Of a stretch of DNA of 64,000 bases, positions 424 through 62,800 are shown piece after piece. The notes below the pieces were generated by a model, which was not told where the DNA came from, searched no databases, and saw only the letters and a program-made list of their open reading frames with translations. Within the stretch, counting starts at the first letter, position 1. Each line of letters opens with the position of its first letter. Position numbers and translations under genes: made by a program. This DNA is from Bdellovibrionales bacterium (GTDB lineage: Bacteria > Bdellovibrionota > Bdellovibrionia > Bdellovibrionales > JAUICD01): contig OZ241865.1 of NCBI GenBank assembly GCA_965203275.1, forward strand, positions 320,001-384,000, read 5' to 3'.

Positions 424-720
424 CACTAAAAGTGGTCTGACCTCTGGTCACTTTCTGGTTGCCAGCCGAAGGCTATTCGCCTTCTTAAATGCTGGCAACC
501 TCAAAAGTTCGTTTACTTTTAGTAGGGAGGATCCCTTCGTTTCTTTACACGATGTTAAGGAAACAAGATGTCCTTTGACATGATGTTAAGGAAAAAGTTC
601 CTTCTGATGCCGGACTGCCGGATCCCAGATCCCGGATAAATACGATGTTAAGGAAAAAGTTCCTTCTGATGCCGGACTGCCGGATCCCAGATCCCGGATA
701 AATACGATGTTAAGGAAATA
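424..720. repeat. Structured ~140-nt repeat (424-562) followed by a 62-bp tandem duplication containing GGATCCC-type heptamers
   Basis: Nested hairpins tgacc-tct-ggtca, ggttgccagc..gctggcaacc and gaaggc-tattc-gccttc. gatgttaagg recurs at 582, 644 and 706. Confidence 0.85.
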
Positions 721-739
721 AGGTGTTTAAAAGGATATT

Positions 740-1399
740 ATGGACAAATCAAATCAAAAAGGCTTTTCTCTTATAGAGTTAATGGTGGTAGTAGCTATCA
801 TTGGTCTTTTAAGTGTTGTAGCTATCCCTCAATATCAAAAGTATAAACTAAAGGCACGACAGGGAGAGGCCAAGCTTGCCTTATCCACTCTTTACACAAT
901 GGAACAGCTCTTTATCACTACTTATGGCTATGGCACTGCTAACTTTGCACAGCTAGGCTATAAACCCAAAGGTGTTTATTATTACTCATCAGGATGGCCC
1001 GTAAGGCGTCAAACTAGTACTCCATATAACGTCAATGCTAGAACTAGGGCTGCTATAAATGTACCAGTGACTTACACAGGCCCTCTGGCAACTTCAACTG
1101 GTAACTATGTAAACACCAGACATGCCTGCAATGGCCCATCATCAGATCAAGCTGCCAAAAACCAAGACCGTGGTTGTTTTCTTCATTGGAAAGGAACAGC
1201 CCTCCCATCAAATCGTACTCAAGTGTATGCAAATCAATTAGGTGAAAGTAATCCTAGAGAAAATGAAGTCGTCAATATAGGCTATAGAAATGTAAAATTT
1301 TTAATTGAAACAAGAAACACAGAGTTGGACGTTTGGCTTATAACAGAGAAAAAGAAAATGGTTAATTTTTCATGGTGTAGTATAATTTCGTGCAACTAG
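740..1399 (+). CDS. Type IVa pilin-like protein
   Basis: Prepilin motif KG|FSLIELMVVVAIIGLL..AIPQY and ARQGEAK helix; RBS aagga. Confidence 0.9.
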   Translation: MDKSNQKGFSLIELMVVVAIIGLLSVVAIPQYQKYKLKARQGEAKLALSTLYTMEQLFITTYGYGTANFAQLGYKPKGVYYYSSGWPVRRQTSTPYNVNARTRAAINVPVTYTGPLATSTGNYVNTRHACNGPSSDQAAKNQDRGCFLHWKGTALPSNRTQVYANQLGESNPRENEVVNIGYRNVKFLIETRNTELDVWLITEKKKMVNFSWCSIISCN

Positions 1400-1607
1400 G
1401 ATATAAACTTTTTAATCGTAAACCTTTTAACCTAGAAAATCATTGATTTCCTCTAAATTAAAAAGCTTACATCCTAGTGGCACAAAATCTCTTTCGACTC
1501 ATAACCTACTGCTCAACTTTATTTTTGCAGGCTATCAAACTCAGGTTTTAAATCCCGAAAATTTTTATAAAAAATTGATTCGTTTTTATAGCTATAGCTT
1601 CTCATCC

Positions 1608-20199: not shown

Positions 20200-20490
20200 T
20201 CTTTAACATGGTGTTAAAAGACGAAAGGATCCTCCCTACTAAAAGTGGTCAGACAGCAAGCTTCTCTGAAGCTTGCCATGTAACAACACTAGGTTGCCAG
20301 CCTTGATGAAAGAACTTTTTCCTTAACATCATGTTAAAAGACGAAGAGATCCTTCCCTACTAAAAGTGGTCAGACAGCAAGCTTCTCTGAAGCTTGCCAT
20401 GTAACAACACTAGGTTGCCAGCATTTGAGAAGGCGGTAGCCTTCGGCTGGCAACCAGAAAGTGACCAGAGGTCAGACCACTTTTAGTGCA
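20200..20490. repeat. Structured repeat family copies with a ~121-bp internal duplication
   Basis: ccttaaca..gttaa, ggatcc, actaaaagtggtc..gaccacttttagtg. Confidence 0.85.
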
Positions 20491-22360: not shown

Positions 22361-22970
22361 TCACTCAAAATGAGCCACACCTCTGGTGTGTTTTTGGGCA
22401 TTGCTCTGACAGCTATCGCTGTCTAAAAAGAGCAATGCCGCAAAAAACTGCTCATTTTGAGTAGGGAGGATCTCCTCGTTTCTTAACATCATGTTAAGGA
22501 AAAAGTTCCTTCTATTATTATCTTACTTTGCAAATCTATCAGGTCAAGCCCTTTTCAGAGAATGGAAAGGTCAATTTATTTTCACTAAAAGTAAACTGAC
22601 CTCTGGTCACTTTTGGGCAGTTAGCCCGACGGCGGTAGCCGTCGGGCTAACTGCCCAAAAGTGACCAGAGGCATGATTTATTTTGAGTGAATTAGAAGCA
22701 TATCTTGTTTCCTTAACATAGTGTCAGAAGCAAGGAGATCCTTCTCTACTCAAAATGAACAAGCTTTTGAGGTAGCCAGCCTTTTACGACGGCGTGAGCC
22801 GTCGGGCTGGCTACCCAAAAGTGGCCAGAGGCCAGTTCATTTTGAGTGAGATGTTAAGGAAACAAGATATCTATTCCCGGTATCAGGCAATCAAGCATCC
22901 CGGGATCTGATGCCTGACTACCGGTTTGCCGGATCCCGGATTCCAGATCCCAGATCCCAGATCACGGGTC
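22361..22970. repeat. Cluster of structured repeats plus GC-rich heptamer repeats
   Basis: Copies at ~22361-22505, 22582-22690 and 22710-22850; ccggatc/ccagatc heptamers at ~22900-22970. Confidence 0.85.
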
Positions 22971-25086: not shown

Positions 25087-26083
25087 TCACTAAAAGTGAA
25101 CGGACTTTTGAGGCAATGACCATTTTATCGACGGCTACCGCCGTCGTAAAAGGCTAGCTACCTCAAAAGCTTGTTCATTTTGAGTAGAGGAGGATCCTTT
25201 TATTCCTTTACAGCATGTTAAGGAAACAAGATATGTTTCTAAAATGTTTTTAAGGAGTACGGCTCTGCCTGCAATAAAAGAACTTTTTCCTTAACATTTC
25301 ACTCAAAATGAACTGGCCTCTGGCCACTTTTGGGTAGCTAGCCCGACGGCTACCGCCGTCGTAAAAGGCTAGCTACCTCAAAAGCTTGTTCATTTTGAGT
25401 AGAGGAGGATCTTTTTATTCCTTTACAGCATGTTAAGGAAACAAGATATGTTTCTAAAATGTTTTTAAGGAGTACGGCTCTGCCTGCAATAAAAGAACTT
25501 TTTCCTTAACATTTCACTCAAAATGAACTGGCCTCTGGCCACTTTTGGGTAGCTAGCCCGACGGCTACCGCCGTCGTAAAAGGCTAGCTACCTCAAAAGC
25601 TTGTTCATTTTGAGTAGAGGAGGATCCTTTTATTCCTTTACAGCATGTTAAGGAAACAAGATATGTTTCTAAAATGTTTTTAAGGAGTACGGCTCTGCCT
25701 GCAATAAAAGAACTTTTTCCTTAACATGTGGTCAAGAGACGAAGAGATCCTCCTTACTAAAAGTGGTCAGGCTTTCTAGGTTGCCAGCTTTTGAGAAGGC
25801 GAATAGCCTTCGGCTGGCAACCAGAAAGTGACCAGAGGTCAGACCACTTTTAGTGAACCAAAAACATCTTGTTTCATTAACATCGTGTTCTTCTGGGATC
25901 CGGGAACCGGGATCCGGCAACCCGGCATCAGAAAGAACTCTTTTTCCTTAACATGGTGTAAAAAAACGAGGAGATCCTCCCTACTCAAAATGAGCAGTTT
26001 TTTGCGGCATTGCTCTTTTTAGACAGCGTAAGCTGTCAGAGCAATGCCCAAAAACACACCAGAGGTGTGGCTCATTTTGAGTG
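25087..26083. repeat. Structured repeat cluster including a 215-bp unit repeated ~2.8x
   Basis: cgacggctaccgccgtcg at 25129, 25344 and 25559; reverse-orientation copies at ~25715-25856 and 25943-26083. Confidence 0.9.
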
Positions 26084-30721: not shown

Positions 30722-31430
30722 TCCGGGATCTGGGATCCCGGGATCCGGGATCTGGCAACCCGGCATCAAAAGGAACTCTTTTTCCTTAACATTTCACTCA
30801 AAATGAGCCACACCTCTGGTGTGTTTTTGGGCATTGCTCTGACAGCTATCGCTGTCCAAAAAGAGCAATGCCTCAAAAATCTGCTCATTTTGAGTAGGGC
30901 GGATCTCCTTGCTTCTGACACCATGTTAGGGAAAATTTCTTTTATTACCTCAAGGGCAAGCGGATTTACGAATGAAGGACTTTTTCCTTAACATCGTGTA
31001 AAGAGACAAGAGGATTCTTCCTACTAAAAATAAACGGATTTTTGAGGCAATCAGCCTTTGATCGACGGCGAGAGCCGTCGGAAGGTGTAAGAAAGAACGT
31101 TTTCCTTAACATGGAGTTAAGGAACGAAGATATCCTTCCTACTAAAAGTGGTCAAGCTTTCTAGGCAATGACCATTTTGTCAATGGCGAAAGCCATTGCG
31201 GTCATTGCCCAAGGTGTAAGAAAGAACTTTTTCCTTAACATGTGGTCAAGAGACGAAGAGATCCTTCTTCCTAAAATTGAACAAGCTTTTGAGGTAGCCA
31301 GCCTTTGATCGACGACGACAGTCGTCGGGCTGGCTATCCAAAAGTGACCAGAGGTCAGTTCAATTTTAGGGAAACAGAGGCATGATGCATTTTGAGTGAA
31401 AATGACGGCTGGTTTACTTTTAGTGAAACA
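30722..31430. repeat. Heptamer repeats plus structured repeat cluster
   Basis: ccgggatc heptamers at 30722-30768; full and partial structured units at 30795-31430 in both orientations. Confidence 0.85.
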
Positions 31431-37104: not shown

Positions 37105-37925
37105 CAAAGTGTGACCGACGGTTCAGTGCCGTCGGGCTAACTACCTAGAAAATCCATTTATTTAATTCACTAAAAGTAAACCAGCCTCTGGCTGTTTTTG
37201 GGCATTGGCTCACTAAAAGTGGTCTAGCCTCTGGCTACTTTCTGGTTGCCAGCCGAAGGCTATTCGCCTTCTCAAAAGCTGGCAACCTAGAAAGCTTGAC
37301 CACTTTTAGTAGGAAGGAAACCTTCATTTCTTAACACCATGTTAAGGAAAAAGTTCTTTCTTACACCTTTTGGCTACCGCCGTCGATCAAAGGCTGATTG
37401 CCTCAAAAATCCGTTTACTTTTAGTAATGAGGATCCCTTCGTCTCTTTACACGATGTTAAGGAAAAAGTTCCTTCTGTTTCACTAAAAGTGGTCTAGCCT
37501 CTGTTTCCCTAAAATTGAACTAGCCTCGGCTACTTTTGGGCAGTTAGCCCGACGGCTACTGCCGTCGATCAAAGGCTAACTGCCTAGAAAATCCATTTAT
37601 TTTGAGTAGGGGAGGATCCTTTTTTCTCTTAACAGCATGTTAAGGAAAAAGTTCTTTTTGAACCCGCCAAGGGCTCAGGAGGAAATTTTTTAGATGCAAA
37701 AATTCATTACAATCAATGCTCTGATGCCGGTTTGCTGGATCCCGGATCCTGGATCCCGGATCCCGGTTCCCGGATCCCAGATCCCGGATGAAAATCATGT
37801 TAGGGAAACAAGATGTTTATCGCAATGGCTTTCGCCATTGGCAAAATGGTCATTGCCTCAAAAATCTATACATTTTGAGTAGGGGAGGATCTCCTTGCTT
37901 TTTAACACCATGTTAGGGAAACAAG
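37105..37925. repeat. Structured repeat cluster plus heptamer run
   Basis: Units at ~37210-37350 and 37507-37650; (cc/ct)ggatc heptamers at 37722-37790. Confidence 0.85.
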
Positions 37926-38416: not shown

Positions 38417-38927
38417 GTTCATTAAAAGTGGCCAGAAGCTGGTTTACTTTTAGTGAAAAGGAAATCAATAGAAGGAAATCTTTTTCCTTAACATTGTGTA
38501 GAGGAGTAAAAGGATCCTTCTCTACTCAAAATAAACAGACTTTTGAGACATTGCTCTTTTTGGACAGCGATAGCTGTCAGAGCAAACGTCAGAAGGAGAT
38601 CTTTTTCCTTAACATCGTGTCAAAAGAGGAAAGGATCCTTCCTACTAAAAGTGGTCAGGCTTTTGAGGCAATGACCATTTTGTCAAAGGCGAAAGCCTTT
38701 GCGGTCATTGCCCAAGGTGTAAGAAGGAACTTTTTCCTTAACATCTTGTTAAAAAACGAGGAGATCCTCTCTACTAAAAGTAAACGGACTTTTGAGATAG
38801 CCAGCCTTTGATCGACGGTGAGAGCCGTCGGGCTGGCTATCCAAAAGTGACCAGAGGTCAGTTTACTTTTAGTGAAACAGAGGCTAGACCACTTTTAGTG
38901 AAACAGAGGCATGATTTATTTTGAGTG
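38417..38927. repeat. Structured repeat cluster between the switch and the pilin
   Basis: Partial units and a full reverse-orientation unit at ~38733-38875. Confidence 0.85.
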
Positions 38928-42531: not shown

Positions 42532-42707
42532 TACAGGGACTCAATCAAGAGTAGCCGACTTTAATCATTATGATAAATTCTGACAACAATAAAAATATCG
42601 ACACGAAGGGTCAAAGGAGTTGACTTCGATGATGATCTTTTACGTTCTGTGTGGTAGGTAAATAAATATTTAAATATTCCAAAGAAATATCCTTTATAGG
42701 AGGTAAA

Positions 42708-43130
42708 ATGGAAAAGAAATTAATAACAGTTTTGATTTTCACAGTGACTTTGCTGAATCAAAGTCTTACATGGGCTACCTGGGGCTATCTGGATAGATAT
42801 CCAAATCATGGTTTTGAGCCTAAAGCCATTACAGATGTTAGCATTAAGGCAAACTGGACGTGTTGCGAAAGAACGCAGTTAATGTATCATAGCTCCGAAG
42901 GCAATACCAGTAAGGTAAAGGAATTGCTAGAGACCGGTGCCGATCCAAATGTTCAAGATGATAATGGCTGGACACCTTTAAATTATGCTACTTATAACGG
43001 ACATATTGAAATTGTAAAGCTACTGCTAGATGCTGAAGTAGACATCAGGCCTCAAGACATAAGGTTATCTAGAGAGGGCGGGCATGAGGATATTGAAAAT
43101 CTCTTATTAGATGCCATTGATACAGAATAA
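42708..43130 (+). CDS. Secreted short ankyrin-repeat protein
   Basis: RBS aggagg, signal peptide, LLETGADPNVQDDNGWTPL..A..NGH.EIVKLLL. Confidence 0.85.
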   Translation: MEKKLITVLIFTVTLLNQSLTWATWGYLDRYPNHGFEPKAITDVSIKANWTCCERTQLMYHSSEGNTSKVKELLETGADPNVQDDNGWTPLNYATYNGHIEIVKLLLDAEVDIRPQDIRLSREGGHEDIENLLLDAIDTE

Positions 43131-44134: not shown

Positions 44135-45437
44135 CCGGGATCCCGGGATCTGGGATCCGGCAGTCAGGCAAGGATAAAACGAACGCTTTCTTTCCTTAAC
44201 ATTTCACTCAAAATGAGCCACACCGCTGGTGTGTTTTTTGGTGTTGCCTGCAAAGGCTTTCGCCTTTGACAAAATAGGCAACACCTAAAAAATCCGCTCA
44301 TTTTGAGTAGAGAAGGATCCTTTTATTCTTTTACACCATGTTAAGGAAATTTTTCTTTTATTGTCTTTACAATGAAGGAACTTTTTCCTTAATATTTCAC
44401 TCAAAATGAGCCACACCGCTGGTGTGTTTTTTGGTGTTGCCTGCAAAGGCTTTCGCCTTTGACAAAATAGGCAACACCTAAAAAATCCGCTCATTTTGAG
44501 TAGAGGAGGATCCTTTTATTTTTTTACACCATGTTAAGGAAATTTTTCTTTTATTGTCTTTACAATGAAGGAACTTTTTCCTTAACATTTCACTCAAAAT
44601 GAGCCACACCGCTGGTGTGTTTTTTGGTGTTGCCTGCAAAGGCTTTCGCCTTTGACAAAATAGGCAACACCTAAAAAATCTGCTCATTTTGAGTAGAGAA
44701 GGATCCTTTTATTCTTTTACACCATGTTAAGGAAATTTTTCTTTTATTGTCTTTACAATGAAGGAACTTTTTCCTTAACATGGAGTTAAGGGACGAAGGG
44801 ATCCTCCCTACTAAAAGTAAACGGACTTTTGAGGTAGCCAGCCTTTGATCGACGGCGGTAGCCGTCGGGCTGGCTACCCAAAAGTGACCAGAGGTCAGTT
44901 TACTTTTAGTGCAAAATAGAAGGTCCAAAAAGTAAGAATGATATATACAAAGAAATTGAAGTAAAAACAAATTTTAGTAGTGAGCGTCTAGCCGATCGCC
45001 TCAAAATTGACCTTTCGTTTCTCTGAAAAGGGCTTGACCTGGTGGATATATGAAATTAGAAATAGAATATTCAAGGAAAGGAAATTTTTCCTTAACATTT
45101 CACTCAAAATGAGCCACACCGCTGGTGTGTTTTTTGGTGTTGCCTGCAAAGGCTTTCGCCTTTGACAAAATAGGCAACACCTAAAAAATCCGCTCATTTT
45201 GAGTAGAGGAGGATCCTTTTATTCTTTTACACCATGTTAAGGAAATTTTTCTTTTATTGTCTTAAGAGCAAGCTCAATGCAATGAAGGAACTTTTTCCTT
45301 AACATGGAGTAAAAAAATGAGGAGATCCTCCCTACTAAAAGTAAACGGACTTTTGAGGTAGCCAGCCTTTGATCGACGGCGGTAGCCGTCGGGCTGGCTA
45401 CCCAAAAGTGACCAGAGGTCAGTTTACTTTTAGTGCA
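44135..45437. repeat. Structured repeat cluster: 193-bp unit x3 plus a repeated forward/reverse unit pair before mglA
   Basis: Units start at ~44205, 44398, 44591 and 45101; reverse units at ~44770-44912 and 45293-45437. Confidence 0.92.
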
Positions 45438-47733: not shown

Positions 47734-48021
47734 TTAGCTTAGATTGTTTAGTTTTTTCTGTATTTCTCGTATTTTGTTCTCTGTGGACTCTGTGATTTTT
47801 GCAATGGTTGAAATATCCATGTTATTTTTAAGCATTTTTAAGATAATATCTTGCCTACCTTCTTGCCTACCTTCTTGCCTACCTTCTTGCCTACCTTCTT
47901 GCCTACCTTTCTCTCGGCCAATCTGAATGCCTTTCTCTTGGCCAATCTGAATGCCTTCTTCTCGGCCAATCTGAATGCCTTTTTTCATAGTTCCTTCTAT
48001 GGTAAAATCAAATGCTTCCAT
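47734..48021 (-). CDS. Putative internally translated Rpn C-terminal small protein (RpnS-like, 95 aa)
   Basis: In-frame ATG at 48021 preceded by AGGAGG (ttaggaggagaaaatattATG). Confidence 0.6.
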   Translation of the reverse strand: MEAFDFTIEGTMKKGIQIGREEGIQIGQEKGIQIGREKGRQEGRQEGRQEGRQEGRQDIILKMLKNNMDISTIAKITESTENKIREIQKKLNNLS

Positions 48022-48924
48022 AATATTTTCTCCTCCTAATTGTTGGGTCACTTCTTTTGAAGCTGATTGAACAACTTCTTTACTTAACTGATTATTGTAC
48101 TGATAAAAATAAGTCATCGCTTTAGTGATGAGTTCTATTATATACTTTTTATCGGTACTTTGCGACACTTTTTTCACAAATGAAAAAAATTTTATGAAAA
48201 AATCATGCTGTTCCTTTGTACTTTTTCTACTATCTAAAGACCAAATACCCTGAAATAAATGCAAAATAGGGCTGATCATTGAACCTTTTGCCTTCGCTTC
48301 TATATCATAAACCGATAGATCAAATGGTACATAAGAAAAATTCATAAGGTAAGGAGCAATAAGACTGCGAGAATGATCAGGAAAATAACCTTGAGATTCT
48401 AAGTAATCATGGAAAGAAATAGGCACTGTCCATTTTTTCATCCCGTGATAAAAAACAATAGGAATTACTGGATAACCATATTTTTCATAGACTGTAGCCT
48501 GATATTTTAACAATTGTTTTAAGACATTATGGTCTGGCCAGCTTTTGTGTTCTAAGAGAAAGATAAATTTGACTGTTTTTTGAGAGTTTTTAAGGGTCAA
48601 TGAAATAAGAAGATCTATTTGCATTTCTATACCTGCTATTAAAACATTCTTTTCTATTTTGAGCGAATCAAGGTTAAAAAGATTTAGAAATGCCTGAGAA
48701 AAAACAAGTTTTAGAAAAGCTAATATGTTCTCTACATTATCAAAAAATCTCTTGAAAGACAAGTCATGGACATGAGCTTGAGAAATAGCTTGTTGCCTTT
48801 CTTTTTGAGCTTGATTCTTAAGATGATTTTGTTTCACTTGATTCATTTTGCATAGAATAAACATATCTTGATGGAATGTCAAATACGTTTGTTTCATTGT
48901 TTCACTAAAAGTGGGCTGTTTCAC
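47734..48924 (-). CDS. Rpn-family PD-(D/E)XK nuclease (true start likely further downstream, ~48846)
   Basis: HD..FK, IDLL, LLEHKS.PD, Q..KY, PVIPIVFYHG; C-terminal G.QIG.E.G/GRQE repeats and KML..MDISTIAKIT HTH. Confidence 0.88.
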   Translation of the reverse strand: MKQPTFSETMKQTYLTFHQDMFILCKMNQVKQNHLKNQAQKERQQAISQAHVHDLSFKRFFDNVENILAFLKLVFSQAFLNLFNLDSLKIEKNVLIAGIEMQIDLLISLTLKNSQKTVKFIFLLEHKSWPDHNVLKQLLKYQATVYEKYGYPVIPIVFYHGMKKWTVPISFHDYLESQGYFPDHSRSLIAPYLMNFSYVPFDLSVYDIEAKAKGSMISPILHLFQGIWSLDSRKSTKEQHDFFIKFFSFVKKVSQSTDKKYIIELITKAMTYFYQYNNQLSKEVVQSASKEVTQQLGGENIMEAFDFTIEGTMKKGIQIGREEGIQIGQEKGIQIGREKGRQEGRQEGRQEGRQEGRQDIILKMLKNNMDISTIAKITESTENKIREIQKKLNNLS

Positions 48925-49700
48925 TAAAAGTGGTCTAGCCTCTGGCTACTTTTGGGCAATGACCGCAAAGGCTTTCGCCTTTGACAAAATGGTCATTGCC
49001 TCATTTGATTTGCACTAAAAGTAAACTAGCCTCTGGCTACTTTTGGACATTGCTCTGACAGCTATCGCTGTCCAAAAAGAGCAATGTCTCAAAAGTCCGT
49101 TTACTTTTAGTAGGGAAAGATCCTCTTGTCTCTTAACATGATGTTAAGGAAAAAGTTCCTTCATTGTAACCCGCTTGCTCTTAAGACAATAAAAGAAAAA
49201 TTTCCTTAACATGGTGTAAAGGAATAAAAAGATCCTTTTCTACTCAAAATAAATGGATTTTCTAGGTAGTTAGCCTTTGATCGACGGCGACAGCCGTCGG
49301 GCTAACTGCCAGAAAACATGCCAGAGGCATGATTTATTTTGAGTGAAATGTTAAGGAAAAAGTCGTCCTCTTTCTACCGCCCACACACGGGCGAGGTTGG
49401 CTCACTAAAAGTGGTCTAGCCTCTGGCTACTTTTGGGCAATGACCGCAAAGGCTTTCGCCTTTGACAAAATGGTCATTGCCTCAAAAGCCTGACCACTTT
49501 TAGTAATGAGGATCCTCTCGTCTCTTAACCACATGTTAAGGAAAAATTTCCTTAACATGGTGTCAGAAGCAAGGAGATCCGCTCTACTCAAAATGAGCAG
49601 ATTTTTGAGGCATTGCTCTTTTGGGACAGCGTGAGCTGTCAGAGCAATGCCCAAAAACACACCAGAGGTGTGGCTCATTTTGAGTGAAATGTTAAGGAAA
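48903..49700. repeat. Structured repeat cluster abutting the CRISPR trailer
   Basis: Units at ~49012-49155, 49200-49345, 49402-49545 and 49548-49686. Confidence 0.88.
49370..49393 (-). CRISPR. Orphan truncated CRISPR repeat (24 of 28 nt)
   Basis: ctttctaccgcccacacacgggcg, preceded by the same ~33-nt flank as the terminal array repeat. Confidence 0.85.
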
Positions 49701-49710
49701 AAGTCGTCCT

Positions 49711-50461
49711 CTTTCTACCGCCCACACACGGGCGTAACATAATGAGGCTCTAACTAAAACCCTTAAAGTTCTTTCTACCGCCCACACACGGGCGTAACAC
49801 GTTCCTAGTGAGACAATTAATGACGTTAAACTTTCTACCGCCCACACACGGGCGTAACAATTACCTCTCAGTGTAATATCCTCGTCCATTCTTTCTACCG
49901 CCCACACACGGGCGTAACAATTACCTCTCAGTGTAATATCCTCGTCCATTCTTTCTACCGCCCACACACGGGCGTAACAATTACCTCTCAGTGTAATATC
50001 CTCGTCCATTCTTTCTACCGCCCACACACGGGCGTAACTTAAAGACGATGAGTTTAGGATTCAAGTGCTTGCTTTCTACCGCCCACACACGGGCGTAACT
50101 TAAAGACGATGAGTTTAGGATTCAAGTGCTTGCTTTCTACCGCCCACACACGGGCGTAACTTAAAGACGATGAGTTTAGGATTCAAGTGCTTGCTTTCTA
50201 CCGCCCACACACGGGCGTAACGAGGTACTCTAGTCATTGCTTCTTCTTTTACACTTTCTACCGCCCACACACGGGCGTAACTCACACTCACTGCCAAAGT
50301 TGGCACACTTCTTCTTTCTACCGCCCACACACGGGCGTAACAAATTCTAAGAGAGTTTTGGAAAAAAGAAAAACTTTCTACCGCCCACACACGGGCGTAA
50401 CAAAAATCACATTGTAAGTGAAGATAGCCGGTTCTTTCTACCGCCCACACACGGGCGTAAC
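49711..50461 (-). CRISPR. CRISPR array: 13 identical 28-bp repeats (GTTACGCCCGTGTGTGGGCGGTAGAAAG), 12 spacers of 32-33 bp, 8 unique
   Basis: Read directly. Hairpin CGCCC-GTGTGT-GGGCG followed by an 8-nt handle GTAGAAAG; lies immediately downstream of cas2. Confidence 0.98.
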
Positions 50462-50503
50462 ACTTCTATAAAAACATTTAACAATAACAAATAGTTAAAC
50501 ATT
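50462..50503 (-). promoter_or_regulatory. Short AT-rich CRISPR leader with IHF-like site (50485-50497)
   Basis: taacaaatagtta is one mismatch from WATCAANNNNTTR and lies ~23 bp from the first repeat. Confidence 0.5.
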
Positions 50504-50788
50504 TCAATTTATTTCTATTAAATGATTAAAAATACCTTCATCAGTTTGACGGCTCTTTAAATCACCAAAAACATAAGAGCGAAACCCTAAGTGATGAGTC
50601 CCATCAGACCATATAAACACCACTCTAAAATCTTCATTATTTTTTCTTAACTCTTTTAAAATATCTTCTCTAATACCATTTTTAGGCCAAACCCATACAT
50701 CCATTGCAATTCTCCAGCAATATCTGCCAATGATCCCACGGGCTTTATGACTTTTTTCTTTTAAAGCATCATTAATAATAACAATCAT
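50504..50788 (-). CDS. cas2: Stand-alone Cas2 (type I-E-like)
   Basis: 94 aa overlapping the cas1 stop; RG..........VW....IREDIL..L...RVVFIW....GF...FG....DEG resembles I-E Cas2. Confidence 0.75.
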   Translation of the reverse strand: MIVIINDALKEKSHKARGIIGRYCWRIAMDVWVWPKNGIREDILKELRKNNEDFRVVFIWSDGTHHLGFRSYVFGDLKSRQTDEGIFNHLIEIN

Positions 50789-51657
50789 TTGCTTTCTTGC
50801 TTAAAAACTTCATTCAATGTTTTGACTAAATAATCTAAAACATCTATTCCTAAAACTAATTTCATAAACTGATTCTTTATTTCTGTTAAACTCCACTCTT
50901 TTTTAACAGCAAGAAAAGACAACTCTAAAGCAATCACAGGTTTAACCACATCAGCGAGATCGTAAGACAAACCTCCTCCTTTTGTCCTGCCATGCAGTAT
51001 GCCAATATTAGGATCATAACCTAAATGTAAAATTGTTAAATCTGCAAGTGAATAAGACAAAAAGTTTAAAAAAGTCAGAGGATCTTTTTTACCTCTATAA
51101 GGCTTTCCTCTTTTCACAAAAGGCACTCCATAATCAATAGCTAATAACTTATAAGCCTCTCTAGCCCATGCTCCTTCCTTTGCTAAAAGGGTATTAATAT
51201 TGTCCCCTTCTTGAGCAGATGGAAATTCAAGTAATTTCACAGAAGAATATTTTTTTATAAAAGTAGCTCTCTTTTGAAAAAGAATCTTTGCAACATTTAT
51301 TCTTCTTTTCTCATCAAATATGACATCATGTTGCCTGATACGAGGAGAAGGAGATCTATGCTGTGTAGAGCATAAATAAAGAGGAGCAGCATTCCCACCC
51401 ATCACACCAATCAAGCAACCTCTCGATGAGATAATTCTCATAGATTCTGATGTGATACTTGTCCCTGGCCCTAAAAACAACCCCCCTATTCCACACACAG
51501 GAATAGAATACTCCTCTTTTAAACCCTTCTTGAAAATTCTTATATCGTTATCCTTTCTCTTGATCTTACTATATTCTATATAATAAAAAGGAATTCTTCT
51601 CGATAGAGGAATCAAGGGTTGTACTTCATCAATACTTATATACTTTCTTTTATTCAT
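50785..51657 (-). CDS. cas1: Cas1 (I-E/I-F clade)
   Basis: IP.....LFLGPGTSIT..SMR, KEG...R..Y, N..SY, LGY.P.IGILHGRT.GGGL.YDLAD..K. Confidence 0.92.
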   Translation of the reverse strand: MNKRKYISIDEVQPLIPLSRRIPFYYIEYSKIKRKDNDIRIFKKGLKEEYSIPVCGIGGLFLGPGTSITSESMRIISSRGCLIGVMGGNAAPLYLCSTQHRSPSPRIRQHDVIFDEKRRINVAKILFQKRATFIKKYSSVKLLEFPSAQEGDNINTLLAKEGAWAREAYKLLAIDYGVPFVKRGKPYRGKKDPLTFLNFLSYSLADLTILHLGYDPNIGILHGRTKGGGLSYDLADVVKPVIALELSFLAVKKEWSLTEIKNQFMKLVLGIDVLDYLVKTLNEVFKQESK

Positions 51658-51674
51658 TTTTTAATTAACATATT

Positions 51675-54191: not shown

Positions 54192-55317
54192 ATTTTTTAA
54201 ATTCTTTTATTCCTGCTTTTCTTAATTGATATATCTCTACAAAAATTGGATCTTTTGTCTCATAACCACGTCCCATTTCCTCAAGGCCATCATAATCCAC
54301 AAAAACCACACCTCCTTCGCCCCATCTAGCTAGGTTTGGCCCTTGTTTGAACTTTTGGATCATATCTTCCCAAGCCGAGGAATTTTGGTTTTCTTCAAAA
54401 GCTTCTTGTGATAAATAAATATCAAAATCCACACAAGCAATATAAGCCGGTGTCCCCCTCACAACAGAATAATATTGTTTATCTATCCATTGTTTGGTAT
54501 TATTCAAATCAGTAAAAACACTAAATTTGCCATAACGAGATTTTTTTATTTGATCTAAAAAATCAGTATCTAAGTCACATAAATGGCAAATTTTTTCTAT
54601 CAGCTTTAAAACTTGTGTACTTATAGATTTTTCATCTTGTATTCTTTTTAAAGCTGTATTGATACCATCTTTTAATTTTGATTGAGGGATTTTTTCATCT
54701 ATAATTTGACTTAGTTTGAGTGCATCTTGTTTTAACTTTTCATATTCTTCTTTATTTTTCTTATATGTAATAACAGTTTCTTGAAAGAGAGAATAAATAT
54801 TTGAAAGAGATAAAGACAAGGAAGCAGATTGTAATATCTTCACTAAAGGCTTTCCTAAAAGTTTTATTGTGGGATCCGCATGTTCAAAAGGATGGTTATG
54901 GAGATTCACTTTAGGGTGATCAGAAAATTCAGATTTTTTATAATGGGTGTCTTTCCTTTCAAAAAAAGTCGTGATATGAGGTTCTGATATTTTTTTAATA
55001 GCTACTGTTTGTACTATGGCATCTAAGGTAGAATTAAGCTTTTGAATAGACGGCTTTTGACTATCTTCTATTTTCTTTATCTTTTGCGTCTCCCCCATAA
55101 GGTAAGAAAATAATCCCTTGAGAGAACTCTCCCTGACAAGAGATAAGACTTTTTGAGAGCTATGTTTGGGGTGAGGAATTAATTTAATATCCTTTTCTCC
55201 TGTCTCTTGTGGTGGATAAAGAAATAATTTGCCAATTTTTATTCTCTCCCATGCTTTGTCTTGCCTGATATAAATACCGCCTGACCGGACTTTTAATTTA
55301 ATGTATGACATAATCAA
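54151..55317 (-). CDS. cas5: Cas5fv-like subunit (type I-F2), divergent
   Basis: SSLKGLFSYLMGETQKI resembles the Cas5 N-terminal motif, with a central helical insert and C-terminal GPNLARWGEGGVVFV glycine loop; follows cas7fv. Confidence 0.6.
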   Translation of the reverse strand: MIMSYIKLKVRSGGIYIRQDKAWERIKIGKLFLYPPQETGEKDIKLIPHPKHSSQKVLSLVRESSLKGLFSYLMGETQKIKKIEDSQKPSIQKLNSTLDAIVQTVAIKKISEPHITTFFERKDTHYKKSEFSDHPKVNLHNHPFEHADPTIKLLGKPLVKILQSASLSLSLSNIYSLFQETVITYKKNKEEYEKLKQDALKLSQIIDEKIPQSKLKDGINTALKRIQDEKSISTQVLKLIEKICHLCDLDTDFLDQIKKSRYGKFSVFTDLNNTKQWIDKQYYSVVRGTPAYIACVDFDIYLSQEAFEENQNSSAWEDMIQKFKQGPNLARWGEGGVVFVDYDGLEEMGRGYETKDPIFVEIYQLRKAGIKEFKKYDWEKDNESKAKK

Positions 55318-56246
55318 TCCTCAGTTACTTCTTTAAATTCTTTGAAAAAATGATGAAATTCTATCTTACTTAATTCTTCTTTCAGTTTAGACTCTTCAGC
55401 ATCTATTGTATCTTCACCATCAAAAAAAGAAACTTTAAGTGATCCCTTTTGATAAGCTAATCTGGATCCTGCTTTTAACCCATGAATACTACGTATTCTT
55501 AGAAAAACAACTTTCACAAGGTGCCTTATTTGTTTTTGATTCAATAAAATCCCCTCTCTTGGAACTTTATAAATAGCATCTTTGTCAATGTATTTTTTGA
55601 TTTCAAGAGCAGAGTCGACACCATGTTTTTCAAAATACTCTTTAAGAAGCTCTAAACATTTATCTTTATCTTTTTTGTTGATCATAGAAAAATCGTTATC
55701 TACCCCATAGAGAGATAAAAATTGAAGCTCTTTAAGATTTATCCCACCTAAAAGCTTTTGTTTCCTATAGGGCAGGTTATCTTTTGAAAACATGGACGTA
55801 TCACTTTTATCTTCACCCTTTTTATTTTTCTCTTTTCCTTCTTTTGGCTTAGAACTACTCCCTTGATCAAAAACAATATCTAAATGATCAGTAGTTACCG
55901 CATCTGCTATATGTAAAGGAGAACATTTTTTAAATCCATCATCGGGTGATAAATAACCTCTTAAAAGCCCTACTTCTGAGGCTACCATTTCAATAAATTT
56001 ATCAGCAAAAATTTTATTTGAAGGTTGTCTGGGTTGAAGGTCTTTAAATATCTCATGCCTCAAACAACGCGAAGATGTGTAATCTTTTCTTCTCTTTTGA
56101 CTTTGATCTACATTTTGAATTTCAGTGAAAGTCTTTGCACACAAATGATTCTCATGTCCATCTCTTTTACCAACTTTGTTGTAATTATAGACACCCCAAA
56201 CATCTAAAAGACCTTCAAAGGTAATAGTTTTAATTGATTGACTCAT
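55314..56246 (-). CDS. cas7: Cas7fv backbone subunit (type I-F2 / I-Fv)
   Basis: IKTITF..GVYNYN..NH..K, Y.S..CLRH.IF, AS..GLLRGY, K..SPL, TSMFSK, LQFLSL and GILLN match my recollection of the Shewanella Cas7fv motif order. Confidence 0.8.
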   Translation of the reverse strand: MSQSIKTITFEGLLDVWGVYNYNKVGKRDGHENHLCAKTFTEIQNVDQSQKRRKDYTSSRCLRHEIFKDLQPRQPSNKIFADKFIEMVASEVGLLRGYLSPDDGFKKCSPLHIADAVTTDHLDIVFDQGSSSKPKEGKEKNKKGEDKSDTSMFSKDNLPYRKQKLLGGINLKELQFLSLYGVDNDFSMINKKDKDKCLELLKEYFEKHGVDSALEIKKYIDKDAIYKVPREGILLNQKQIRHLVKVVFLRIRSIHGLKAGSRLAYQKGSLKVSFFDGEDTIDAEESKLKEELSKIEFHHFFKEFKEVTED

Positions 56247-56257
56247 AATAATCCTCC

Positions 56258-56815
56258 TTATTTCATTAAAATTAATCCATAGCCGTAGGATTTTCTAGAT
56301 CCTACGCCCTTACTTAAAGCTTGATTGAATTTATGATGATCTAAAATATGAAATTTTCCCTCAATGCTAAAAATATTGTGAATAGTAAAATAAATATCCT
56401 TTTTATCTTCTCTCCGAGGTCCAAGAAACTGACAGGATACCTGATCTCCCTTGAGACCTGTCATAAAGCAAAACTTCTCTAAGGCTTTATCTTGGTTTAT
56501 TTGAGGATAGATGTTTTTTTGTCCTCTTTTATTTTCCGGAATAATATTTTTTTTGTGTCTATTGCAAAACGAAACATGAGTTTCTAATGCCACTGTCTTA
56601 TCATCCTCATTGATTAGACTCATTTTTTGAGTGCTGTGATGTAATGGTTTAGCAGGTGGAAGTGTGGAAAGAACATACAGCAAATCACCTTGAGACAGTG
56701 ACGGACAGATATTTTGAGGAGAATTAAATAACTCTCTAATCAATGAATGAACAGAAGAATAACCAGCTTCAAATAAAGAAAAACAATAAATATTTACTTG
56801 ATTTTTCAATGTCAA
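56258..56815 (-). CDS. cas6: Cas6 endoribonuclease (Cas6e-like)
   Basis: YS.VH..I..LF N-terminus, L.VLS..PP, and C-terminal F..AL.KGVGSRKSYGYGLI G-rich loop. Confidence 0.82.
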   Translation of the reverse strand: MTLKNQVNIYCFSLFEAGYSSVHSLIRELFNSPQNICPSLSQGDLLYVLSTLPPAKPLHHSTQKMSLINEDDKTVALETHVSFCNRHKKNIIPENKRGQKNIYPQINQDKALEKFCFMTGLKGDQVSCQFLGPRREDKKDIYFTIHNIFSIEGKFHILDHHKFNQALSKGVGSRKSYGYGLILMK

Positions 56816-57321: not shown

Positions 57322-58721
57322 GAGCTTGTCCCTGATATCGGTGAAAATAGACGGCTCATAAATTAGTTTTTAATTGTTTTTTCTTTTTGTCAATAATAAT
57401 TTTTTTTAAACTTTGTTCTAATTGTTCTAAATCTTTAAATCCTTTAATGCTTTTGAAATGTTTTTCTGCTTCCAATAGACTCACAGCAGACCATCTTAAA
57501 ACTTGATCTGAAGAAGAACTCCAATTCTTTACCCTCCGAACTTTTTCCCTCACAACTGAAAAAACAGACTCAATAGGATTTGTCGATGATAATGACCTCC
57601 TTAAAAGTAATGAAACTCCAAGCTTGATCGTTGTCAGTGTCTCCATCTCTGCCTCTTTTAAAGATGTGAATGCTGAATGATTGACCCGCTTTAACCAGCT
57701 TAATAAAGACTCATGCTCTAACTTCGATGACAACTCATCTGGCATACCATGTAACTTCTTCCAACGACTCTTAAACTCTATGTGACGACTTGGAGGTAAG
57801 CAACTCAGAATATTTCTCTCTTTATGCTGAATACAACGCTGAACTACTGAACGACCTGAAAATACTCTATCTATTCCCTTCCTTAATGCTTTGCTACCAT
57901 CAATCACAAAAAGATAACCCTTCTCTTTATCAAGACCACGACCTATAAGTCCCTCCAGAAGATCACGGCAAACTTCCCAACTCTCTGTATTGCCTTCTTT
58001 AAGACCTAATATAACCTTCTTACCTTGATCTGTGATTCCTAAGGCCACTATAACCAGCGTAGAACCAATACCCACTCCATCTATCATTATCGCTGGAAAC
58101 CTGTACTTACTTAAATCACGATTGTTAATCGACTCAAGGGCTTGTTTAGATGACTTATTAAAAACTCTACTCACACTACTCCTAGAAAGTTTAAGCCCTC
58201 CTGAAATATCATCTAAAAGATGATTGTAATTCCGTGATGAAACTCCACTCATGGCATGTTTTAAAACACGATCACTGAGTATGTCATAGTGTTGAAGGGC
58301 TGAATAGATCTTAAGCCTCACTTCACGACCTGACTGCTTAACACGAGGCTTCCTAACCTGCAACTTTTGACCACCTGCAAGTATGCTACCTTTATCACTA
58401 CCAGCTCTATGATATGGTGTATCTCTATGACGACCATAACGCTCACCGCAAAGCTCTAATAGCTCTGCTTCAAAAAAACCATAGACCGAACAAAGAATAG
58501 ATGACTTGATCTCATCCTCTACAATCTGACGAATTTCTGACAAAGTATTGGCTGAAACTTGAAATGAATGACTATTTTTGGTACACTTCATAATGGCTCC
58601 TTTCTTTTTATTTTTAAAAGTTAATTGTTAATAAAATTTGGTTGGCTGAAATATGCCAACCAGGAGCCTTCTATCTTAACATCTTCTCTAAGAAAAATTC
58701 ACCGAATTATAGGACATGCTC
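57322..58721 (-). mobile_element. IS256-family insertion sequence (1400 bp) with imperfect terminal IRs and an 8-bp target duplication
   Basis: IRs gagcttgtccctgatatcggtgaa and (rc) gagcatgtcctataattcggtgaa; atttttat duplicated at 57314-57321 and 58722-58729. Confidence 0.92.
57356..58591 (-). CDS. IS256-family (Mutator) DDE transposase
   Basis: GVSSRNY, IMIDG, ALGI...G.K.ILG, FVIDGSK.L, QRCIQHK.RN, STNPIES. Confidence 0.92.
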   Translation of the reverse strand: MKCTKNSHSFQVSANTLSEIRQIVEDEIKSSILCSVYGFFEAELLELCGERYGRHRDTPYHRAGSDKGSILAGGQKLQVRKPRVKQSGREVRLKIYSALQHYDILSDRVLKHAMSGVSSRNYNHLLDDISGGLKLSRSSVSRVFNKSSKQALESINNRDLSKYRFPAIMIDGVGIGSTLVIVALGITDQGKKVILGLKEGNTESWEVCRDLLEGLIGRGLDKEKGYLFVIDGSKALRKGIDRVFSGRSVVQRCIQHKERNILSCLPPSRHIEFKSRWKKLHGMPDELSSKLEHESLLSWLKRVNHSAFTSLKEAEMETLTTIKLGVSLLLRRSLSSTNPIESVFSVVREKVRRVKNWSSSSDQVLRWSAVSLLEAEKHFKSIKGFKDLEQLEQSLKKIIIDKKKKQLKTNL

Positions 58722-60039: not shown

Positions 60040-60293
60040 TTTATGCTTTCACCTCAATGATCATTTTTATGCGTTTTGCTTGAATAAATAAAGGTTCTAT
60101 AAAATATTCATATTTCTTACCTTACCTATATTATCTTATACTTTGAGGAGTAAATAAAATAAAATCTTATTATAAGTATAAGCAATATTTATTTTCTAAC
60201 TTTTTGTTTTTGTTTTGAATCTATAAGATATTTTCTCTTAAAGGATACATCGGCTTTATGGATTCTTATTTTGAGACAAATATAGAATTGATA

Positions 60294-61574
60294 TTATTCT
60301 GTAGCTCCGGCCTCTTGCAATAACCTTGCAATTTCAGTACGGTTATGTCCACTAGATTGACGTCTAGTAGTCCATAATAAAGCCGTACGGCCATTATTGT
60401 CTTGATGATTGACGTTAGCTCCGGCCGCTATCAATAACTTTACAATCTCTACATGGCCTCTATCACTAAAAACATTTCTTATCCAGTCTATAGATTCGTT
60501 ATAATGATCGATTGAAGACACCACTATTGGATACTTTCCTTTCTGTAGGAGTCCATTAACAGCATGCATTAAAGGTGTCTCCCCATCTGCATTTGCTCGA
60601 TTGACGTTAGCTCCGGCCGCTATCAATAGCTTTACAATCTCTGTATGGCCCCACTTACTAGCCAGCAATAAAGCTGTCTCGTCCTTCTTTGAGAAATAAC
60701 GCACAAATCGACTTCTAATGTTTGGATCGGCTCCAGCCGCTAGCAATAACTTTACAACCTCTGTATAGCCATCCTTACTAGCCCACATTAAAGCCGTATA
60801 GCCACCATAGCCTTGATAATTGACGTTAGCTCCGGCCGCTATCAATAACTTTACAGATTCAATGGTTTCAAGCATGAAGGGAGTCTTGCCACTAGCATAC
60901 ATTAAAAGTGTATTGTGGGTTTTGTCCACCGGCATATTAACATTCATACAAGTACTTTTTAAAAATAGCTTTAAAATTTCTGTATTTTTGACAAGGGACT
61001 TTCTAAACAAAGAATACCCTTTATAAGAAACCTTGTTATTATGTATAAAACCACCCTCAGAGTCTCCAGCCTCGTCCTCTTTAGTATACGAAAGACTACC
61101 AGGGTCTGCTCCGGCCGCTAGCAAATTCTTTATACCCTCTATATCACCATTAATAACAGCCTGTTTTAAATTTGCACGACCATGACGAGGCCTGCAAGTG
61201 TATGTTGTTGGAGTTGGTCTTAAAACTACCTGTGGAGCTGGAGTTGGTCCTGGAATCAGAGTTGCCGTTGGTTCTGGAATCCGATCTGGAGTTGGTCCTG
61301 GAATTGGAGCTGTAGATGGTCCCGGAGTTGGAGATGGTCCGGGAGTCGGAGCTGGAGTTGCCGTTGGTCCTGGAGTCGAAGTTGTAGATGGTCCTGGAAC
61401 CGGAACTGGAATCGAAGCTGGCTTTTGTTCTATTTGAGAACTGGACGTCTTACTGTCAAAACGGCTTTTCGCACAGTTGTTAAAACTGAATACCAAACAA
61501 GACAAAATAAGCAATGCTAACGATAAATAAGCAAGCCTTTTTTTAGATTTTAGATTTTTAAACATTTTAAACAT
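60294..61574 (-). CDS. Ankyrin-repeat lipoprotein with Pro/Thr-rich linker
   Basis: FSFNNC lipobox-like sequence, (PT/PGP)n linker, ankyrin repeats ending AGATE. Confidence 0.9.
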   Translation of the reverse strand: MFKMFKNLKSKKRLAYLSLALLILSCLVFSFNNCAKSRFDSKTSSSQIEQKPASIPVPVPGPSTTSTPGPTATPAPTPGPSPTPGPSTAPIPGPTPDRIPEPTATLIPGPTPAPQVVLRPTPTTYTCRPRHGRANLKQAVINGDIEGIKNLLAAGADPGSLSYTKEDEAGDSEGGFIHNNKVSYKGYSLFRKSLVKNTEILKLFLKSTCMNVNMPVDKTHNTLLMYASGKTPFMLETIESVKLLIAAGANVNYQGYGGYTALMWASKDGYTEVVKLLLAAGADPNIRSRFVRYFSKKDETALLLASKWGHTEIVKLLIAAGANVNRANADGETPLMHAVNGLLQKGKYPIVVSSIDHYNESIDWIRNVFSDRGHVEIVKLLIAAGANVNHQDNNGRTALLWTTRRQSSGHNRTEIARLLQEAGATE

Positions 61575-61745
61575 GTTGTACCGACCTTAATAAAGATTGA
61601 TTTATTTATTTATCTAAATACCTTATCGGCAGGTTTTAAAATTTACTTAAAAAAATATAGGGAAATTAACTTAAAATGCATAGATTTTTGAGACAATGAC
61701 CATTTTAGTGACCATTTTATTGACAGCGTGAGCCGTTAACGTTTT

Positions 61746-62800
61746 TCCGGGATCCGGGATCTGGCATCCGGCAACCGGCAACCCGGGATCCGGGATCTGG
61801 GATCTGGGATCCGGCAACCGGCAACCCGGGATCCGGCAGTCAGGCATCAGGCAACAGATCCCGGAACCCGGAATGCCTGCTTGCCTGATCCCGGATCCCG
61901 GGACCCGGGATCTGGGATCTGGGAACCGGCAACCCGGCATCAAAATGACTTTTTCCTTAACATGTAGTTAAGAGATGAGGAGATCCTCCTTACTAAAAAT
62001 AAACGGATTTTTGAGGCAATCAGCCTTTGATCGACGATCCTTTTATTCCTCTACACCATGTTAGGGAAACAAGATATTCGAGAGCCGTCGGGCTGATTGC
62101 CCAAAAACAGCCAGAGGCTGGTTTATTTTTAGTGAAACAACTCCTTAACATTGTGTTTATCCGGAATCTAGGATCCGGGATCTGGCAACCGGCAACCCGG
62201 CATCAGAAAGAACTCTTTTTCCTTAACATGGTGTCAAAAAACGAAGAGATTCTTCCTACTAAAAATAAACGGATTTTTGAGGTTGCCAGCATTTAAGAAG
62301 GCGAATAGCCTTCGGCTGGCAACCCAAAAGTGACCAGAGGTCAGTTTACTTTTAGTGAAACAAACTCCTTAACATCGTGTTTTTCCGGGATACGGGATCA
62401 GGAAACCGGCAACCCGGCATCAGAAAGAACTCTTTTTCCTTAACATGGTGTCAAAAAACGAAGAGATTCTTCCTACTAAAAATAAACGGATTTTTGAGGC
62501 AATCAGCCTTTGATCGACGACGAAAGTCGTCGGGCTGATTGCCCAAAAACAGCCAGAGGCTGGTTTATTTTTAGTGAAACAACTCCTTAACATCGTGTTT
62601 TTCCGGGATACGGGATCAGGAAACCGGCAACCCGGCATCAGAAGGAAATCTTTTTCCTTAACATGGTGTCAAAAAACGAAGAGATCCTCCTCTACTCAAA
62701 ATAAATGAATTTTCTAGGCAGTTAGCCTTTGATCGACGACGACAGTCGTCGGGCTAACTGCCAGAAAACATGCCAGAGGCATGATTTATTTTGAGTGAAA
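61746..62800. repeat. Long heptamer run (61746-61942) plus structured repeat cluster
   Basis: ccgggat/ctgggat/ccggcaa heptamers; units at ~62220-62358, 62437-62577 and 62654-62797. Confidence 0.9.

Follow-up and report, generated by a model that had tools for sequence, protein, structure and literature searches.

An abundant three-way-junction repeat in a Bdellovibrionales chromosome has features of a nonautonomous single-stranded DNA element

Results

A structured repeat in the window and across the chromosome

We analyzed a stretch of 64,000 nucleotides (nt) from a Bdellovibrionales bacterium (hereafter the window; assembly GCA_965203275.1, contig OZ241865.1, positions 320,001 to 384,000), in which an initial annotation had noticed a recurring intergenic repeat with covarying stems. 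This repeat is real, very abundant, lineage-restricted, and structure-selected. An iterated nhmmer profile, seeded with window positions 424 to 560, gave 40 non-overlapping matches in the window (28 of them full length) on both strands and in 10 clusters from 424 to 62797, bearing out the earlier estimate of about 30 copies in about 10 clusters and in both orientations. The clusters and the loci that they touch are as follows.

424..560, minus strand (the folding strand, B, is minus): full copy with a mosaic outer stem, upstream of a pilin gene
After copy 424-560, to ~720: mini-units of head plus heptamer
20203..20488, plus strand: cluster of two, one partial and one with an extra internal hairpin
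22362..22848, unstranded: cluster of three, adjoining a tRNA gene (22283-22355)
25088..26083, unstranded: cluster of five, including a 215-bp tandem array of element plus flank
30795..31369, unstranded: cluster of four, two full and two truncated by nesting
37168..37918, minus strand: cluster of five, with stacked fragments and a heptamer tract (~37726-37791)
38486..38874, plus strand: cluster of three upstream of a pilin gene
44205..45435, unstranded: cluster of six, including a 193-bp tandem array and head-to-head pairs
47734..48924, minus strand: Rpn/YhgA-family gene (PF04754), its 5' end abutting an element tail
48922..49686, unstranded: cluster of five between the Rpn gene and a clustered regularly interspaced short palindromic repeat (CRISPR) array
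49370..49393, plus strand: CRISPR repeat 4 nt short, joined to an element tail
49711..50461, unstranded: type I-Fv-like CRISPR array of 13 repeats, its cas-distal end invaded by the element
61669..62797, plus strand: cluster of six with heptamer tracts (~61739-61955) and 217/218-bp spacing

In the copy at 424-560, the two outer arms derive from different alleles, which makes this copy a mosaic.

The source genome (G000) is a single contig of 2.57 Mb, 90% complete by markers, and was compared with G001, of the same genus, and with the relatives G002, G003, and G004; these five genomes are kin, and counts across them are not independent tests. In G000, the profile gave 1,281 non-overlapping matches covering 145,893 bases (5.7%), 749 of them full-length copies in 415 clusters, and no matches on the reversed genome. 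These results and the fold described below confirm the family that was first proposed, with the unit corrected from ~140 nt to ~150 to 160 nt when linkers are counted. Contigs of four public sequencing runs had depths over the repeat clusters that were tens to hundreds of times those of flanking genes, and the repeat is therefore not an assembly artifact. Two of the four runs, both from one study, carry a sponge metagenome label, with pieces of flanking genes of up to ~580 nt. No empty allele was seen in the public-run contigs, which end at repeats.

Only 3 of the 1,281 matches lie inside open reading frames (ORFs) of at least 150 amino acids (aa), and full copies show no strand bias along the chromosome (363 of 749 on the plus strand). 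Sequences are diverse, with 591 distinct ones among 686 copies; identical copies form 37 groups, dispersed more than 5 kb apart. Heads are intact in 1,026 matches and tails in 931. Neighboring copies stand head to head in 131 cases versus tail to tail in 29, and gaps of 53 to 55 nt recur. Another intergenic hairpin repeat family, with ~50 copies in G000 and a look-alike in G001 and in contigs binned with G004, contributes a remnant that forms a ~54-nt spacer between head-to-head pairs. Small repeats, which we take to resemble IS1634 ends, also occur in G000 intergenic regions.

One geometry with exchangeable helices

We call B the strand that starts with the CCTTAACAT head, so that the head comes first and the tail last, and T the other strand. 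When up to 8 mismatches were allowed, 689 of the 720 copies complete at both ends fit one three-way-junction geometry, and 31 were dropped. From the base, this geometry comprises P1 (14 bp), a 3-nt linker, P2a (6 bp), a bulged base, P2b (9 to 11 bp), an asymmetric internal loop, P3 (7 bp) with a GNNA loop, and P4 (5 to 6 bp) with an AGA loop. One copy, on the plus strand of the window, serves as the exemplar.

5 to 27 nt upstream of 44773..44781: variable A-rich linker of the head
44773..44781: head motif of 9 invariant nt, at the folding strand's 5' end
44782..44808: the head hairpin's weak 3' arm and a single-stranded spacer that is purine-rich and hypervariable
44809..44911: whole three-way junction
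44809-44822/44898-44911: P1, with basal T·G, then the 3-nt linker
44826-44831/44879-44884: P2a, with the bulged A at 44832
44833-44842/44869-44878: P2b, with the internal loop at 44843-44849
44850-44867: P3, with the GNNA loop at 44857-44860
44885-44897: P4, with the AGA loop at 44890-44892
44912..44919: A-rich 3' tail linker (0 to 13 nt, mode 8, often with C at the end)

Across the 689 copies, Watson-Crick pairing in the five helices is 90.5, 98.8, 97.4, 95.1, and 98.6%; when partner arms are shuffled among copies, it drops to 73, 78, 59, 74, and 60%, respectively. The stems thus change and yet stay paired, as initially described. Each helix has about 5 to 15 common alleles, among them all of the stem sequences and complements first named, and these alleles are reassorted among copies. 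The adjusted mutual information of paired arms (0.73 to 0.89) exceeds that of adjacent unpaired segments; in a MAFFT-based mutual-information scan, the signal was blurred by indels. In an alignment of 48 sequences from G000, G001, and the G004-binned contigs, 92.9% of cells are paired and both sides change in 32 of 46 pairs. None of 500 shuffles matched this pairing, and slid controls were only 35 to 48% paired.

Fixed irregularities accompany the variable stems. The bulged base is A in 657 of the 689 copies, the side hairpin P4 has a TCT/AGA loop in 675, and the apical loop is a GNNA tetraloop in 619 (397 GNRA and 222 GNYA) or a GNNNA pentaloop in 58, in agreement with the conserved bulge, the tct loop, and the one-stranded GNNA loops of the initial annotation. 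The closing pair of the apical loop is C-G in 681 copies, and P1 begins with T·G on B in all 689. Two other early proposals held less well. The terminal palindrome is present as a motif, mostly as the invariant 9-nt sequence, which forms the 5' arm of a weak hairpin: 79% is paired, one pair is broken in 30 of the 48 sequences, and only 1 of 5 pairs covaries. The GGATCC-like motif is not kept in G001.

The folding strand

The fold is specific to one strand and resembles DNA more than RNA. Folding energy by itself barely tells B from T, and three copies fold with z scores of −4.9 to −12.0 on both strands. The RNA counterpart of such tetraloops is the GNRA family. Stable DNA loops include GNNA tetraloops and GNA triloops, according to part of one published account (PMC10085684). 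Because the third position of the apical loop is free, the DNA family GNNA fits better than the RNA family GNRA.

Rare single changes in the stems, read on B, are C→T more often than G→A (33 versus 12 unique events, P = 0.002; 87 versus 22 by copies), with A→G versus T→C at 4 versus 2. Given that copies lie on both genome strands alike, this bias suggests either that B is exposed single-stranded or that G·T is tolerated in the B fold. Upstream of genes, B runs forward in 183 cases versus 43; downstream, it runs backward in 167 versus 101. The tail thus faces the gene on both sides, and the rule is not that B is transcribed. Rfam at the gathering score returned only a tRNA, with weak microRNA-type hairpin matches far below the cutoff, and a hammerhead core was found in 0 of 689 copies on either strand. 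Together with the 222 GNYA loops, these results disfavor a new structured noncoding RNA or ribozyme. Of the selected ssDNA (single-stranded DNA) or RNA fold envisaged at the outset, a selected, strand-specific fold stands, and ssDNA fits it better than RNA.

Nesting and junctions

Copies frequently enter one another, as seen for 590 of 1,407 tail ends. Within the junction body, 446 nested tails lie on the same strand as the resident copy versus 16 on the opposite strand (97 versus 7 distinct types of position plus linker), and 279 of the 446 fall at positions 115 to 124, around the P4 loop. In another 95 cases, a tail joins the head loop with opposite sense, giving units with a head at both ends. 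Tail linkers measure 0 to 13 nt (mode 8) and head-side linkers ~5 to 27 nt, the latter recurring with pieces of an earlier (donor) flank. Left and right junction types combine freely, and target gaps range from negative to more than 100 nt, which points to recombination between copies.

We compared filled and empty paralogues at 497 clusters, over gaps from −40 to +12 only. The 48 pairs recovered have gaps spread across the searched range and no constant duplication; many of the "empty" sites are themselves repeats, so these pairs are imperfect ancestors. A flanking direct repeat of at least 10 nt is present at 8 of 59 solitary copies, four of which represent one event. Of the 126 near-exact tandem duplications in the genome, 40 overlap the element, and their units consist of element plus flank. 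Preferential rejoining of a tail upstream of its own head received no support (61 upstream versus 57 downstream, of 766).

Damaged CRISPR arrays and genes

In the window's CRISPR array, the cas-distal repeat is truncated by 4 nt at its hairpin foot, where it is fused to an element tail, and ~55 nt (head plus partial repeat) is duplicated at ~49680-49734. A second array in G000, beside a 1,365-aa Cas12-like frame, is cut in the loop of its repeat. No CRISPR spacer matched the element. The CRISPR region of the window (49711-56815) includes two spacers each repeated threefold in tandem; the array's neighbors are cas1, cas3, an unassigned 388-aa gene, a weak cas6 match, and a Cas7fv-like gene (score of 105 versus a cutoff of 200), and an IS256-family gene (57356-58591) lies just upstream.

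The same insert of element plus heptamer splits four Rpn genes of G000 (at 893180, 908254, 1707820, and 2025618), in each case at codon ~210, with an 11-bp duplication, directly before an internal ribosome-binding site and ATG. Rpn genes are described, in the parts of two accounts drawn on here, as toxins with an intragenic antitoxin (PMC10400941, PMC5350276). To judge from its position, the insert would remove the toxin and keep the antitoxin.

Two other gene types recur beside copies in the window. A duplicated 300-bp region upstream of pilin genes (1-420 and 37993-38292) holds a long palindrome whose core 16-mer has ~51 copies in the genome, and there are ~33 pilin-like paralogues genome-wide. 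Ankyrin-repeat genes, which are typical of host-associated bacteria, lie at 40137-43130, 60294-61574, and 23332-25068 and belong to a similarity cluster of ~100 ORFs genome-wide, many adjoining the repeat.

Search for a mobilizing enzyme

Searches for a mobilizer targeted named families, with no Pfam scan of the whole proteome. No Y1 or RAYT protein was detected in G000 by PF01797, NF047646, a regular expression for the HUH motif, or tblastn with the Y1 proteins of G001 and G002. NF047646 had no matches in G000 or G001, and none of the 12 HUH matches in six frames of G000 is RAYT-like. The single Y1 protein of G001 is IS200-like and is not flanked by the repeat. The repeat-flanked RAYT or IS200 TnpA that the initial annotation had proposed looking for was thus not found in G000. 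For Y2 (IS91) proteins, the best PF04986 match in G000 had an E value of 0.11, below the cutoff. No match or candidate for the reverse transcriptase family RVT_1 (PF00078) was found in G000; other reverse transcriptase families were not searched. PF07282 matched only the Cas12-like frame, and GIY-YIG matched a single frame of 612 to 653 aa in each of five genomes.

G000 encodes two tyrosine recombinases, an XerD-like protein and the product of a short gene. Neither is flanked by the repeat, and the XerD-like protein scores 55 against the integron model (cutoff, 265), which leaves the proposed repeat-flanked integrase without a counterpart. The XerD-like protein is the only full-length Xer in G000, and no dif-like site was identifiable. 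The short recombinase (187 aa; G000 2047789-2048352, L012:1417-1980) lacks the usual N-terminal domain; it has matches in 28 of 31 genomes of the order and is 46 to 63% identical to a gene in 21 of the 30 other genomes. Inspection by eye of ORFs with repeats on both sides, in G000 and G004, gave no recombinase-like candidate.

Distribution and sister families

Counts of the head pattern are 253 in G001, 9 in G004, 1 (a chance match) in G002, and 0 in G003. The nine G004 matches lie on three small contigs, C1, C4, and C11 (L112, L037, and L036/L202/L203), which duplicate ribosomal-protein genes of contig C14 at 55 to 79% identity and lack G004's own repeat; they are therefore probably mis-binned and derived from a third organism. 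The covariance scan of related genomes that had been proposed yielded nothing further: under strict filters, model R1 had no match in any of 150 further genomes from the phylum. Nothing was found either by two pattern scans, one metagenomic and one viral, or by blastn against plasmids and phages. Searches of the literature, which excluded subscription papers and supplements, found no published description of this family.

Two relatives carry families of their own. That of G003 (44 matches; loci L107-L110 and L120-L139) has a ~124-nt unit with a long A-tract stem, a bulge, internal loops, covarying stems, GNA triloops, and a one-sided handle, and it forms tandem arrays and inserts in Rpn genes. 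That of G004 (137 to 151 handles; loci L060-L079 and L151-L206) has interchangeable hairpin bodies between two fixed handles and is nested and tandem. Both handle motifs are common to the two families. Since profiles of the families do not detect one another, their likeness to the head region of the main repeat is only suggestive, and homology between the main repeat and that of G003 has yet to be established. In a 346-kb sample of G002, 31 16-mers were seen at least 5 times, versus 2,848 in an equal stretch of G000, and its repeats are mainly short palindromes like those beside its RAYT-like genes. These genes (L018, L019) are bracketed by short inverted repeats, and G002 has no long repeat families.

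Discussion

On balance, we favor the view that the repeat is a nonautonomous ssDNA element, similar to bacterial interspersed mosaic elements (BIMEs) and without a recognized mobilizer. Its active form would be a single strand, B, folded into the three-way junction and read through the invariant 9-nt head and the fixed noncanonical features. A single-stranded copy with a few flanking bases may first be joined by its tail to another single strand, in the same polarity and in or close to an unpaired part of a hairpin. Joining of the head side would follow, either 5 to 27 nt past the head or through homology with a head already resident, and would delete or duplicate a variable stretch of the target. 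Homologous recombination among the ~1,300 copies could subsequently swap helices and junction types and build tandem arrays. The enzyme would most likely be a structure-reading ssDNA nuclease or strand transferase acting in trans, lost or unrecognized, as in families of repetitive extragenic palindromes (REPs) without a RAYT.

Several points weigh against this interpretation. The named-family searches of G000 found no mobilizing enzyme. A position within 1 base of an unpaired one is seen for 303 of the 446 nested copies, but the preference for hairpin targets is weaker by distinct types (54 of 97, where unpaired positions are 31 of 91), and junction types have been amplified and are hence not independent. 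The commonest junction types share no dinucleotide by eye, unlike those of RAYT; donors were not identified, and junctions may have changed later. Covariation counts among paralogues lack a correction for phylogeny, and the C→T bias could stem from transcription or from selection on an RNA fold. Finally, the evidence for movement itself is indirect.

An unlikely alternative is that the repeat spreads without an enzyme, through stalling at hairpins and template switching by a nascent strand, which would copy from head to tail and be released when the long stem closes; covariation would then come partly from correction of quasi-palindromes rather than from selection. Variable deletion or duplication of targets, captured flanks, and short homologies at junctions would fit this scheme, as does the outcome of the enzyme searches. 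G000 also has motifs of what we take to be RecA, RuvB, RuvC, MutS, and MutL, called with regular expressions. However, correction should erase bulges, and yet three organisms retain the bulged A, the internal loop, the T·G, and the 9-nt head. An unpaired motif that is invariant implies a reader.

Mobilization in trans by a four-helix-bundle cassette (PF05635, Avd/IVS-like) or by the Rpn PD-(D/E)XK nucleases appears quite improbable, despite a close association. A copy lies within 300 bp at 11 of 11 four-helix-bundle loci and 37 of 38 Rpn loci, versus 229 of 1,014 single-copy genes, and 248 of 304 heptamer tracts in G000 have a head within 60 nt. The four-helix-bundle protein is ~70 to 75% identical between G000 and G004 (median, 47%), and 9 of 44 copies of the G003 sister family lie within ~1.5 kb of an Rpn gene by hand count. 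Pilin loci, however, are likewise enriched (23 of 28), so the association can be explained by spread with duplicated genes; IS256-like loci (2 of 8) and loci that we take to be IS1634-like (1 of 9) are not enriched. Neither family suffices as a cause: the element is missing from G004's own contigs despite 19 four-helix-bundle genes with heptamer arms, beside which the family native to G004 is not enriched (5 of 19 versus 171 of 1,139), and it is likewise missing from G003, which has 16 Rpn genes. Genes of both types are frequently disrupted by the element. In the portions of two studies available to us, a transposase role for Rpn is judged highly unlikely (PMC10400941) and RpnA has no preference for cruciforms (PMC5350276). 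Toxin knockout plus spread with duplicated genes would be a simpler reading of the Rpn link, and the window's Rpn/YhgA gene is best regarded as a target or passenger, a candidate mobilizer at most. In G000, 14 four-helix-bundle genes or fragments lie between heptamer arms (for example, 472364-472669 and 2111804-2112109), and the cassettes place a hairpin over the ribosome-binding site.

We give a similarly low probability to a host-selected RNA element (an mRNA stabilizer, regulator, or small RNA) or chromosome-organizing site spread by gene conversion. Such a role would accord with the dominance of B upstream of genes, with toleration of G·T on B, with the 397 GNRA loops among 619 tetraloops, and with the transcription reported, in part of one account, for the analogous bcr1 (PMC3184786). 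The 222 GNYA loops and the AGA triloops fit DNA better, however; downstream copies have the reverse orientation, copies are destructive to one another as well as to CRISPR repeats and genes, and Rfam gave no match.

It is very unlikely that the repeat is a retroelement resembling short interspersed nuclear elements, in which a B-strand RNA with an A-rich 3' end would be reverse-transcribed at nicks. The A-rich tail, duplications of variable length (that at the Rpn site is 11 bp), and numerous short fragments consisting of tail alone are of the expected kind, but there is no RVT_1 match, the loops are of DNA type, and truncated copies that retain the head outnumber those that retain the tail. 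An attC-like or Xer-type site of a tyrosine recombinase is extremely improbable: the long stem with an extrahelical base, and a head resembling half of what we take to be the GTT box and XerD arm consensuses, stand against imprecise ends, missing core boxes, the low integron score of the XerD-like protein, and two recombinases unflanked by the repeat.

Returning to the ssDNA element that we favor, a wider proposal is that it is one member of an undescribed, RAYT-independent class of self-targeting ssDNA elements, each built of an invariant handle and a folded body that can be interchanged, with separate radiations in each host-associated lineage of one Bdellovibrionales family. An unrecognized enzyme aiming at hairpins, possibly tied to the four-helix-bundle/heptamer cassette, would move these elements; Rpn toxins would be disarmed, CRISPR arrays invaded, and pilin and ankyrin genes duplicated in the process. 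Taken as a whole, we regard this proposal as rather unlikely. At 5.7% of a 2.6-Mb chromosome, the repeat is a major force on the genome: it breaks Rpn toxin genes, has entered two CRISPR arrays, and accompanies pilin and ankyrin genes that have been duplicated. How structured repeats spread in genomes without a RAYT is an open question in the passages cited here (PMC8266576, PMC3733652), and this family offers ~700 full copies that can be parsed and whose nested targets are known, along with a clear active strand and two sister families. Both the requirements of its fold and the rules of its junctions can be tested directly, and an enzyme, if one were found, would represent a new ssDNA-processing activity.

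Comparison with known systems

Three candidate assignments were rejected. An attC site has the core sites RYYYAAC and GTTRRRY closing its stem, and the repeat resembles attC in its single-strand fold, its extrahelical bases, and its conservation of structure over sequence; it differs in having imprecise junctions, no IntI, and no cassette array, and with RYYYAAC in 0 of 689 copies and GTTRRRY near the tail in 2 of 689, the attC-like site first suggested was not borne out. Miniature inverted-repeat transposable elements (MITEs; ERIC/IRU, Correia, and RUP) share its size, intergenic location, and stable fold, in the part of the literature cited (PMC3184786), whereas the repeat has neither defined terminal inverted repeats nor a constant target-site duplication (none in the 48 filled/empty pairs), its end linkers are variable, and its ends differ by up to ~20 nt. 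An IS91/ISCR rolling-circle derivative was dismissed on the PF04986 result and because both ends vary.

Other systems share more. The four-helix-bundle cassette, similar to the intervening sequences of 23S rRNA, is also a stem-closed insertable unit of unexplained mobility and is physically entangled with the repeat in G000 and G001; in G004, however, it occurs without the repeat, and it consists of a gene plus tandem heptamers, with no three-way junction. The bcr1 element of the Bacillus cereus group, as described in part (PMC3184786), is ~155 bp long, mobile, noncoding, and transcribed, with a branched, cruciform-like fold kept by compensatory changes, and is flanked by 5-bp direct repeats, whereas our repeat has no fixed duplication, ~1,300 copies, polar self-nesting, and DNA-type loops. 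Repeats with a CGTC tag, including the palindromic elements (RPEs) of Rickettsia, are likewise abundant and structured, and no dedicated transposase is reported for them in the part of the account cited (PMC3733652); the present repeat differs in having no terminal CGTC tag, a branched fold with allele sets, and almost no copies inside ORFs.

REPs and their compound forms, BIMEs and REPINs, were an early suggestion, as substrates of an HUH transposase, and the way the repeat works is closest to that of REP/BIME elements. REPs are 20 to 50 nt long and the repeat is ~150 nt and branched; it has no 5' GTAG tag (bases 5' of its stem are T-rich or C-rich, and GTAG is found only at the 3' foot of the non-folding strand), no RAYT gene in the genome, and no shared CT at junctions by eye. 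What stands of the suggestion is the intergenic, clustered distribution with inverted pairs, tandem arrays, and mosaics. The RAYT enzyme of REP, in the portion of the work cited, processes one single strand, needs the bulge in the stem, and cuts 5' or 3' of the hairpin (PMC8266576). Like the REP, BIME, and REPIN families so far as they are described there and in part of a second study (PMC8266576, PMC6006769), the repeat combines hundreds to thousands of intergenic copies, inverted pairs with a linker, and tandem mosaics with one active single strand, a retained stem irregularity, and flexible junctions near a hairpin.

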